This document shows, one piece after another, positions 20 through 2,152 of a stretch of 25,398 nucleotides of DNA. Position numbers and translations under genes: made by a program. The notes under the pieces are model-generated. The model was given only the letters and a program-made list of their open reading frames with translations. It was not told the DNA's origin and searched no databases. Within the stretch, counting starts at the first letter, position 1. Every line of letters begins with the position of its first letter. Origin of the DNA: Escherichia phage CBA6; the sequence record KM389302.1. One strand, given 5' to 3'.

Positions 20-2152
20 TCAGTTCCAGATGGAGTGTCTCCCCACGACTAAACCACCAAATGGGAATACTTGTTGTGACTCAGTCGAAGACATTCTATT
101 TCTCATGTCTTGGGAAATACTGGTAGAAGTCAGATCACTGAACCATTCTTGTTTAACTGCCCAAGAATATAATACCAACGGCATAACGCAGTCGTCGTGA
201 CATCCATCATCTGCTTCATAACGCGCACCACGGAACACGAATGTGCTGAGTTCATCTATCGTGTCTTGATCTTCAATCACCAACATTTCTTTCTCAATAA
301 GCGCTTTCAGGTTAGCACAACCAATAGATCGCACTTTCCTGTTGGTGTTAATGCCTGGCTCTGGTTTACGACCACCAATCCGTTTCCCTGTCCCTTTGTT
401 ATCCGTCGACGTGAATATGATCTCTGGATACTCAATTTCTTGATACAAGATCGTGATAACCTGACCACCAACGTCGTTATTCGTCTCGACAAGGACAGGG
501 CATTCCCCGTATTCAGTACACATATCAGCTATCGTGTATGCATACATCATCGGAGGTATTGTATTGTTCCTGTACTTGGCCGCTATGACATGCGGGTATT
601 CCGTTATATCTAGAATTGTCAGAACCGAATAATCTCCTTCAACACCTTTCCCCGTATCTGCGATCCCGAAGTAGATGCGTTGCGGGTCATATTCCTTGTA
701 AATTTTGGTGAACTCATTAGGCTCTCGATATAACTTGGATGTCATTTTATCCAAGCATTTGGCTGGTATCAATGAACCTACAGAACCACGGAACTTGATT
801 CCAAATTCCTGGTCAAAACGGGCATCCCCCAGACGAGCGCGTTGTTTGGTTTCCCAATCAGGGTCTTTGGTGTACGCCGGAACCTTGTACCAAGGGACTT
901 CGGTAAGATGGAAATCGTTGTATTGTGGATGGCGCGGGTCTGCTTTGGTGACGATATCATAGAACAACCCTCGCTGGCCTTTCGGAGTACTGGTCAGAAT
1001 ACAACGTGAAGTATCGGCAGATGCGATCGCTGGGAATGTTGACTCCCAAAATTCAAAGTCATTTTCGATGAACGCGACTTCGTCCACGTACAAGAGAGAT
1101 ACAGAACGACCACGAATAGAGTCCGAAGACGTTGCATAAGCATATATCTTAGAGCCGTTCTCAAATTCTATCAGTGTAGAACCAAACTTCTCACAACCCT
1201 GCTGAAGGAAGAATGGGAGGTCCTGATACGCTTTCCTGATACGATCAAGAATTTCAATCGCTTGTTTCTCTTTGTTTGCCAGTACCGCGATTTCTTTGTC
1301 TGAGTGGAACATCGCATACCAAAGAAGAAACGCAGCCACGACCGTGGTATTATGGCTGAGGAACCCATTCGTGTAATAACGTTGATCGCTGGACTTGACT
1401 TGCAAGTCATACATGTGGTGGTACTCACCAGTCTCCCAGATCTCAGAGATGAATTCTATTCCCTCCTGGGTCATTATGGCATCTCCGGCCTCCATGTCTT
1501 TAGCAAATACTTCGCGCCCATATTCATTGAAGAACATGTGCTCATCTGCGACATGAATTGTGCGTCCGGTTTCAGTCCTGACCACGTATTCAGCGTATTC
1601 TTTCGTTTTATGAGCGGCAATAACCGGAACCCAGCCAGTGTCGGACTCAACAAAATATCGTTTCCCGAAACGGCTGTCTACAAACTTATTGTGGTTGCCA
1701 ATGGTATTCAGTGGCACAGCATGGTTCGGTCCTTCGAAGCGCTTGTGAAGCTCTTCTATGGTGAGATGCAACTCTTGTTGACTGACTGTATCATAGACAT
1801 AAACAAGAGTATCACCACGGACGCATTTACCGGACTGACGCGCCTGGACAACGGCATTGAAACGATAATCTTGAAAATCGTGAAATAATTGTTTCTGATA
1901 ATCATGCATATCGAAAAGGATAAAGCCTTTATCGATTGTCGTTATCTTGTAGTAATTGGCAGCGAAGTAATGTGCGTCCATTGAACATTCAACAAATTCG
2001 TCTTCTTGTTCATCTGTTAGCATCAACTCGACTCGTGGAGCGCGCACAGAAGGCTTGCGCATGAACGTCTGGTCCATACGCAATTTCACGTCGTCGATTT
2101 TAAACCCCGTTTTTATCGGAGCATATTCTATATCACGCTTCTGATACGCCAT
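20..2152 (-). CDS. terL: Terminase large subunit (T4 gp17-like ATPase/nuclease), interrupted in frame by a mini-intein
   Basis: 710-aa ORF. Walker A reads QARQSGK-[intein]-TTVVAAF, Walker B-like LLYVDEVAF, and LTSTPKGQRGLFYDIV resembles the T4 gp17 TTTPNG region. Start overlaps the end of the upstream small-subunit gene. Confidence 0.9.
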   Translation of the reverse strand: MAYQKRDIEYAPIKTGFKIDDVKLRMDQTFMRKPSVRAPRVELMLTDEQEDEFVECSMDAHYFAANYYKITTIDKGFILFDMHDYQKQLFHDFQDYRFNAVVQARQSGKCVRGDTLVYVYDTVSQQELHLTIEELHKRFEGPNHAVPLNTIGNHNKFVDSRFGKRYFVESDTGWVPVIAAHKTKEYAEYVVRTETGRTIHVADEHMFFNEYGREVFAKDMEAGDAIMTQEGIEFISEIWETGEYHHMYDLQVKSSDQRYYTNGFLSHNTTVVAAFLLWYAMFHSDKEIAVLANKEKQAIEILDRIRKAYQDLPFFLQQGCEKFGSTLIEFENGSKIYAYATSSDSIRGRSVSLLYVDEVAFIENDFEFWESTFPAIASADTSRCILTSTPKGQRGLFYDIVTKADPRHPQYNDFHLTEVPWYKVPAYTKDPDWETKQRARLGDARFDQEFGIKFRGSVGSLIPAKCLDKMTSKLYREPNEFTKIYKEYDPQRIYFGIADTGKGVEGDYSVLTILDITEYPHVIAAKYRNNTIPPMMYAYTIADMCTEYGECPVLVETNNDVGGQVITILYQEIEYPEIIFTSTDNKGTGKRIGGRKPEPGINTNRKVRSIGCANLKALIEKEMLVIEDQDTIDELSTFVFRGARYEADDGCHDDCVMPLVLYSWAVKQEWFSDLTSTSISQDMRNRMSSTESQQVFPFGGLVVGRHSIWN
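1349..1825 (-). other. Mini-intein (159 aa, Hint domain only) inserted in the terminase P-loop
   Basis: Insert begins with Cys straight after GK (codon tgc at 1823-1825 on the minus strand) and ends with His-Asn followed by Thr (codons checked at 1346-1354). C-terminal YDLQVKSSDQRYYTNGFLSHN matches intein blocks F/G. Removing it restores GKT. Too short to hold a homing endonuclease domain. Confidence 0.8.

Follow-up and report, generated by a model that had tools for sequence, protein, structure and literature searches.

The DNA analysed here (hereafter the window; 25,398 nucleotides from Escherichia phage CBA6, sequence record KM389302.1) begins with a gene for the large terminase subunit, in which the ATP-binding loop of the packaging ATPase is split by 159 additional residues. 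This raises the question of what the insert is, and how a functional enzyme is to be obtained from a gene interrupted at such a point. The explanation we strongly favour, and regard as highly probable, is that it is a class-1 mini-intein lying in the Walker A motif (between Lys109 and Thr) of the terminase, whose canonical splicing would restore a functional protein. Over its first 6 kb the window shares 99.7% identity with Salmonella phage vB_Sen_ST2 and 99.5% with phage Vi01, and judged by this identity the window is that of a Vi01-like phage (Ackermannviridae, Kuttervirus).

The terminase gene and its interrupted Walker A motif

The large terminase (TerL, T4 gp17-type) precursor is encoded by an open reading frame of 710 codons at 20..2152 on the minus strand (the sequence-only reading, which had proposed an intein here, left the strand unstated). 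It is the first large gene of the window, and its translation matches the Pfam family Terminase_6N in a profile scan (E 2.7e-16), with the RNaseH-like family Terminase_6C scoring marginally below its cut-off. The N-extein (residues 1–109; 1826..2152, minus strand), delimited by translation and by alignment to T4 gp17, closes with the opening residues of the Walker A motif, namely the RQSGK encoded at 1826..1840 (minus strand). The C-extein (20..1348, minus strand, including the stop codon at 20..22) contains the remaining ATPase domain and the RNaseH-like nuclease domain, as judged from Pfam and the T4 gp17 structures. When the intein is removed in silico the window TerL has 551 residues; its match to Terminase_6N improves to E 1.3e-21, Terminase_6C again falls narrowly under the cut-off, and the T4 gp17 structures 3ezk and 3cpe are matched at E 4e-76 over residues 28–516. 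By these comparisons the host protein is a T4-type large terminase (Terminase_6), predicted to combine an ASCE ATPase carrying the Walker A motif with an RNaseH-like nuclease. The TerL of all close relatives has 736 codons, compared to 710 in the window because of one extra base at 41..44, a G near the 3' end of the gene that truncates the C-terminus.

Across the insert the TerL translation reads NAVVQARQSGK–C110VRGDTLV…YDLQVKSSDQRYYTNGFLSHN268–T269TVVAAFLLW, and thus contains all of the motifs quoted in the sequence-only reading (GK-[C…HN]-T and YDLQV…GFLSHN). The junction peptide of the TerL spliced in silico is …ARQSGKTTVVAAF…, and the spliced ARQSGKTTVVAAFL aligns without gaps opposite SRQLGKTTVVAIFL of T4 gp17, a segment that we take to be the Walker A motif of that protein. 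This gap-free alignment places the insert where it had been claimed to lie, in the Walker A motif of a large terminase.

Homologous terminases had to be collected with the whole precursor as query, a search with the isolated intein returning only two matches. Some homologues carry inteins of 150–183 or 443–451 residues at the same GK|T position, in exteins with identities down to 37%, while others have no intein. The latter include P0015 (576 aa, 86.5% extein identity), P0016–19 (76–79%), Vibrio phages such as K485 (58%) and T4-like phages (approximately 43%), and RQSGKTTVVAA is contiguous in P0015, P0016–19, Vibrio phage K485 and the T4-like TerLs. The closest intein-free alleles are metagenomic. 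The P0015 and P0016 contigs are syntenic, with the gene order gp15-gp16-gp17-gp18, and at the insertion site both carry the 20-residue peptide AVVQARQSGKTTVVAAFLLW, which splicing of the window TerL in silico reproduces exactly, in keeping with the earlier claim that removal of the insert restores GKT. The sequence-only reading would have been undermined had homologous terminases carried the insert as ordinary sequence; this is not the case, because the intein-free homologues show a contiguous GKT. On the evidence of these alignments, the insert is an in-frame intein between the Lys and the Thr of the TerL Walker A motif.

Intein anatomy, fold and predicted splicing

The intein occupies 1349..1825 on the minus strand (C110 to N268), exactly the interval reported previously, and its length of 159 residues, also as reported, was confirmed from the translation of the TerL reading frame. 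Same-site inteins were extracted from homologous terminases and 23 of them, from exteins reaching down to 37% identity, were aligned for residue conservation; the invariant residues are C1, A93, D94, H96, D140, H158 and N159. Cys1, the block A nucleophile, is C110 of the precursor (1823..1825). Block B (intein A93-D94-E95-H96; 1538..1549) was located by aligning the insert with the inteins gp41-1 and CDC21, where H96 falls opposite the block B His; the block reads A-D-x-H throughout the intein family, with an invariant Ala where the TxxH consensus has Thr. Blocks F and G (M138-YDLQVKSSDQRYYTNGFLSH-N159; 1349..1414) include the invariant D140, H158 and N159, the last being the terminal Asn of the intein (N268 of the precursor; 1349..1351). 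T269 (1346..1348), the first residue of the C-extein, is both the predicted junction nucleophile (Thr+1) and the Thr of the Walker A GKT; all of these features lie on the minus strand. Thr is rarer than Cys or Ser as a +1 nucleophile, and at this TerL site the +1 residue is Thr in all of the other inteins save two with Ser. Cys1 is the only Cys among the 159 residues.

Profile searches with the isolated insert gave a score above cut-off for the NCBIfam family intein_Nterm (TIGR01445; 26.8 bits, cut-off 24.5), and scores below it for intein_Cterm (TIGR01443; 11.9 versus 15.6) and for the Pfam family Intein_splicing (PF14890; E 3.9e-8, 33.7 bits versus a gathering threshold of 35.8), although PF14890 is assigned to the homologues P0001 and P0003 in the precomputed Pfam table of the homologue database. 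Comparison with known inteins, which had been proposed as a check, gave the gp41-1 intein as the best sequence match in the PDB, a CDC21 intein, the consensus Cat intein and VidaL also being among the best, with blocks B, F and G aligned. An alignment-based AlphaFold2 model of the intein (mean pLDDT 95.2, pTM 0.87) consists of a single all-beta domain with two short helices. Among its best 50 Foldseek matches in the PDB, 46 are inteins and the other four are chains of one BIL2 domain, which also has the Hint fold and appears at rank 42 and lower; VidaL leads (E 3e-11), followed by the CDC21, RecA, DnaB, gp41-1, RadA and TFIIB mini-inteins. In this model the insert has the Hint (horseshoe beta) fold. 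Its match to the intein pattern is far beyond chance, and the TIGR01445 score, the modelled fold and the Foldseek matches uphold its original identification as an intein.

No homing endonuclease was detected in the insert by Pfam and profile scans, the sole Pfam match being Intein_splicing. At 159 residues, modelled as a single domain, the intein is too small to house one, and it contains no conserved open reading frame in an alternative frame; the description of the element as lacking a homing endonuclease domain is thus accurate. Assignment to class 3 was rejected, since the intein has Cys1, carries Asp140 at the block F position and contains a single Cys. A BIL or Hedgehog Hint domain was likewise rejected, given the location in the Walker A motif, the presence of H-N|T and the existence of empty-site alleles.

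In the proposed pathway, a 736-residue precursor would be translated in which the intein splits the ATP-binding loop. An N–S acyl shift at Cys1 would be followed by attack on the thioester by the hydroxyl of Thr+1, giving a branched intermediate; Asn159 would then cyclise with the help of His158 to release the intein, and an O–N shift would leave a normal peptide bond between the exteins. Splicing is predicted to yield a TerL of 577 residues whose GKT loop is intact, together with the free intein (159 residues, approximately 18 kDa), and DNA packaging, like the binding and hydrolysis of ATP, would be possible for the spliced TerL only. The sequence-only reading held that the packaging ATPase needs splicing in order to be active, and we infer the same. 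Five other TerL inteins splice efficiently in a reporter, and splicing has been argued to be a prerequisite both for a working ATPase and for the assembly of the pentamer (Kelley et al. 2016, PMC5050341). The intein, having no endonuclease of its own, would be passed on together with TerL while purifying selection acts on it, and its alleles would now and then be exchanged by recombination.

Distribution, allele history and competing explanations

Dozens of database records contain an intein protein with 100% identity to that of the window. About 276 phage records match the extein junction at 80% identity or more, the intein itself is present in 278 at no less than 60% identity, and among the isolates of enterobacterial Ackermannviridae searched the element seems to be fixed. 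Its GC content (46.5%) is near that of the remaining TerL gene (44.7%) and of the window (43.7%), and so gives no sign of recent foreign origin. In every pairwise comparison pN/pS of the intein is far below 1, indicating purifying selection, which is the pattern to be expected of an intein on whose splicing an essential gene depends.

Within this group the intein and its exteins appear to differ in history. Compared to CBA120, a phage of the same genus, the window is 98.9% identical at the amino acid level in the exteins and 78.6% in the intein, whereas compared to Klebsiella phage Magnus, of a different genus, the values are 88.7% and 84.3%. At 43 extein amino acid sites the window agrees with CBA120 against Magnus and at none with Magnus against CBA120, while in the intein the corresponding counts are 12 and 21 for amino acids and 47 and 73 for nucleotides (p = 0.02). 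In the comparison of the window with CBA120, the extein shows a non-synonymous divergence of 0.004 and the intein one of 0.146; Nei-Gojobori pS is 0.55 and 0.78, respectively, and divergence at four-fold degenerate sites (0.42 in the extein, 0.56 in the intein) does not differ significantly (p = 0.11). Because of this last result, the evidence for incongruence is taken from the amino acid and nucleotide site patterns and not from dS. We provisionally propose that within Kuttervirus the history of the intein is incongruent with that of its exteins, and that two old intein alleles may circulate in the genus by recombinational allele exchange without a resident endonuclease, the exchange being provisional since the four-fold site test is not significant.

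The apparent fixation of the intein in the isolates searched of the enterobacterial Ackermannviridae, and its persistence under purifying selection without an endonuclease, might reflect domestication, with conditional splicing acting as a post-translational switch (sensing, for example, redox, temperature or assembly state) through which activation of the packaging ATPase is timed to the late phase of infection; a role for P-loop inteins as possible sensors has been discussed (PMC5050341). However, the intein has no second Cys for a redox trap, and a disulfide is impossible with only one. There is also no regulatory hint in the sequence, intein-free relatives are evidently viable, and persistence is equally explained by the rarity with which an intein is precisely deleted from an essential gene. 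We regard such a switch as unlikely, and hold it to be just as unlikely that the intein is kept as a post-translational gate on the TerL ATPase while being exchanged between lineages, possibly aided by free-standing TerL-adjacent endonucleases (F-LimIX, Limestonevirus). A different concern is that the insert might be a splicing-dead, Hint-like element that the mature terminase keeps and tolerates as a loop domain: we infer splicing of this protein from its sequence, the Pfam score is slightly under the cut-off and the block B Thr is absent. This is very unlikely, as the GK|T of the Walker A motif would then stay split, C1, H96, D140, H158, N159 and T+1 are kept in very divergent copies, which would not be expected of a dead element, and it has been argued from modelling of the TerL pentamer that assembly could not accommodate a P-loop intein left unspliced (PMC5050341).

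A further possibility is that a second gene, such as an antisense homing endonuclease, is hidden within the insert. The window does contain an open reading frame of 194 codons (1304..1888, plus strand) that spans the whole intein; antisense and out-of-frame endonucleases have been reported in inteins, and out-of-frame reading frames occur in distant relatives of the present one. However, the 194-codon frame is codon-aligned antisense to TerL and is open simply through the rarity of TTA, CTA and TCA among the sense codons (1.7%), other parts of TerL genes show open runs of 146 to 256 codons, and antisense stops fall within the intein in all six of the other alleles examined. We reject it as an endonuclease gene, considering it an artefact of codon usage and the chance of a hidden antisense gene negligible. 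A class-1 mini-intein that splices canonically remains by far the most probable explanation.

The long same-site inteins of 443–451 residues (P0054, P0084, P0087 and P0110) are of separate interest. Their approximately 290 extra residues sit in the loop equivalent to EGPNHAVPLNTIGNHN of the window intein, and as in-frame inserts matched no Pfam family. In both of the large relatives examined as DNA (P0054 and P0084), the TerL frame stays open through the insert, and a long open reading frame also runs in the +1 frame. That of P0054, at L014 1748..2686, has the architecture of an HNH + NUMOD3 homing endonuclease, with both domains above the Pfam cut-offs, and that of P0084 shows weak similarity to the PD-(D/E)xK restriction-endonuclease family. 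Out-of-frame and antisense endonucleases inside inteins of actinobacteriophages were described in a 2025 preprint, and a 2025 report described a phage methylase with a 'hidden' HNH lying out of frame; the nested frames of P0054 and P0084 would add cases from T4-type terminases. On this evidence, the window mini-intein may belong to a lineage that owes, or once owed, its mobility to nested out-of-frame reading frames.

Relation to known inteins

The element, its boundaries and its nature were already known, having been annotated and published since 2013. In GenBank record KF669654 (phage Maynard) the gene is annotated 'intein-containing terminase large subunit', with the remark 'intein from Cys110-Asn268', and the intein and the spliced terminase are each given as mat_peptide features. 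Similar annotation is present for phages Marshall (KF669653) and Mooltan (MH688040) and Klebsiella phage Magnus (MN045230), and the 2013 genome announcements of Marshall and Maynard state that an intein interrupts the large terminase. The homologous TerL intein of Campylobacter phages was published in 2012. Terminase inteins have been described as the most abundant phage inteins, and the 'classic' P-loop insertion lies between the invariant Lys and the nucleophilic Thr (GK|T) (PMC5050341). The finding is therefore not new, and its discovery value is small, given the public records and the fact that P-loop TerL inteins are a described class. The literature searched (Kuttervirus, CBA120, Ackermannviridae) yielded genome announcements only and no experimental work on this particular intein, and the word 'intein' is absent from a 2024 Ackermannviridae review. 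Most Ackermannviridae records say just 'terminase large subunit', and annotators should mark the intein. This is a compact, single-Cys, Thr+1 mini-intein from well-studied biocontrol phages, which could be tested as a protein-engineering tool. The TerL site is also a reasonable system in which to study the intein life cycle (invasion, fixation and endonuclease loss), because it combines apparent fixation without an endonuclease, two deeply diverged alleles in a single genus and, in distant relatives, out-of-frame endonuclease reading frames in the same loop.

The TerL intein of Maynard, Marshall and Mooltan is the same element as that of the window, in the same gene and at the same site, with 100% amino acid identity and, in Maynard, the same boundaries (Cys110-Asn268). 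Relative to the annotated Vi01-like TerLs the window shows no difference within the intein, the extra G truncating the window TerL only. Magnus carries an allele that is 84% identical and likewise annotated. More distant are the homologous inteins of Campylobacter phages vB_CcoM-IBB_35 and CP21, which are 33% identical over the C-terminal 73% of the query; these phages, and other T4-type phages, resemble the window in both intein and host gene (a T4 gp17-like terminase), but the TerL gene of IBB_35 also contains an intron bearing an HNH endonuclease, unlike that of the window.

The small phage- and metagenome-derived inteins gp41-1 (6qaz) and VidaL (6vgv) share a compact Hint fold with the intein modelled here. 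The best sequence match is gp41-1 (E 8e-4, with blocks B, F and G aligned), and VidaL is the best match to the model in structure (E 3e-11, TM 0.76–0.83). However, both are naturally split, reside in other host proteins and are only approximately 20% identical to the window intein, which is contiguous and in the model has an extra helical excursion at about residues 23–46. A parallel in position is provided by the TerL1-a inteins of mycobacteriophages (PMC5050341), which occupy the same Lys|Thr site of the Walker A motif and must splice to rebuild the ATPase site. Their host family is Terminase_1, compared to the T4-type Terminase_6 of the window, and in that study Terminase_6 inteins occur only at another site (TerL6-f, in the C-motif). 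Many of the TerL inteins described there have active endonucleases, whereas the window intein has none, and the likeness between them is one of insertion site.

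Intein alleles and their exteins

Comparison of the mini-intein of the CBA6 large terminase gene TerL (window 1349..1825, minus strand) with its counterparts in CBA120 (locus L003, 2501..2977) and the Klebsiella phage Magnus (locus L005, 2501..2977) showed that the genus Kuttervirus contains two intein alleles that have diverged deeply. The window and CBA120 inteins display 78.6% amino-acid identity, compared to 98.9% between the exteins that flank them. The Magnus allele, from a Klebsiella phage of the genus Taipeivirus, is nearer to the window intein than the CBA120 allele is, at 84.3% amino-acid identity. 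This incongruence between the intein and extein sequences suggests that alleles have been exchanged through recombination, although the intein carries no endonuclease.

A free-standing homing endonuclease gene, F-LimIX, lies between gp16 and gp17 (TerL) in Dickeya phage XF4 (locus L004, 1309..2187), where it overlaps the start of TerL approximately 330 nt upstream of the intein site. No F-LimIX-like gene is present between gp16 and gp17 in the window, where the two genes overlap directly (2133..2152).

Two further records are irregular in length. The intein match in Klebsiella phage TTM-TASP117 (PV588649, 52532..53211) is broken into two parts that together extend over 680 nt compared to 477 nt, and its annotation is that of two hypothetical proteins. 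In Salmonella phage vB_Hercules_SET (OP423032, 44123..51057) the gp13–gp17 region exceeds that of the window by approximately 935 nt. These length differences may be insertions or assembly problems.

An extra base and an antisense reading frame in the window

Relative to every close relative, the window TerL gene is shifted in frame by one additional G in a homopolymer near its 3' end (41..44, CCCC on the plus strand and GGGG in the minus-strand gene). The predicted protein consequently stops 26 codons early (710 aa compared to 736 aa), with the new tail RHSIWN*. None of the best 160-nt matches listed for the phage collection has the additional G (identity 159/160). A homopolymer sequencing error is the probable cause, the alternative being a frameshift private to this phage.

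An antisense open reading frame of 194 codons (1304..1888, plus strand) covers the whole intein and is codon-aligned with TerL; it owes its openness only to the rarity of the codons TTA, CTA and TCA. In each of the six other alleles examined (CBA120, XF4, Magnus, Ag3, 3M and VP-1) the frame is interrupted, and it was therefore rejected as a gene.

Additional insertions and nested frames in other TerL genes

In Vibrio phage VP-1 (locus L008, 1985..5327), TerL contains a 179-aa intein at the same Walker A site (between GK and T) and a GIY-YIG domain at aa 506–589, C-terminal to the ATPase domain. A CDS of its own, 'terminase like family protein', is annotated for the nuclease half. It seems that a GIY-YIG homing endonuclease has split the gene, and the same Pfam combination is found in three other homologues (P0052, P0080 and P0111). 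Two more TerL proteins, P0099 (970 aa) and P0050 (838 aa), have been invaded multiple times, each carrying a mini-intein at GK/T together with additional sequence at other points in the ATPase domain, which in P0099 includes a SegE-type GIY-YIG match at aa 373–449 (22.6 bits, slightly under the 25-bit cut-off).

Inteins of 443–451 aa occupy the same GK/T site in metagenomic T4-type phages. Those of P0054 and P0084 maintain an uninterrupted TerL frame over approximately 290 codons, a stretch with no recognisable in-frame domain. Each also contains a long +1-frame ORF, that of P0054 (locus L014, 1748..2686) encoding HNH plus NUMOD3 and that of P0084 (locus L013, 1841..2746) being weakly PD-(D/E)xK-like; these are putative homing endonucleases nested out of frame within the inteins.
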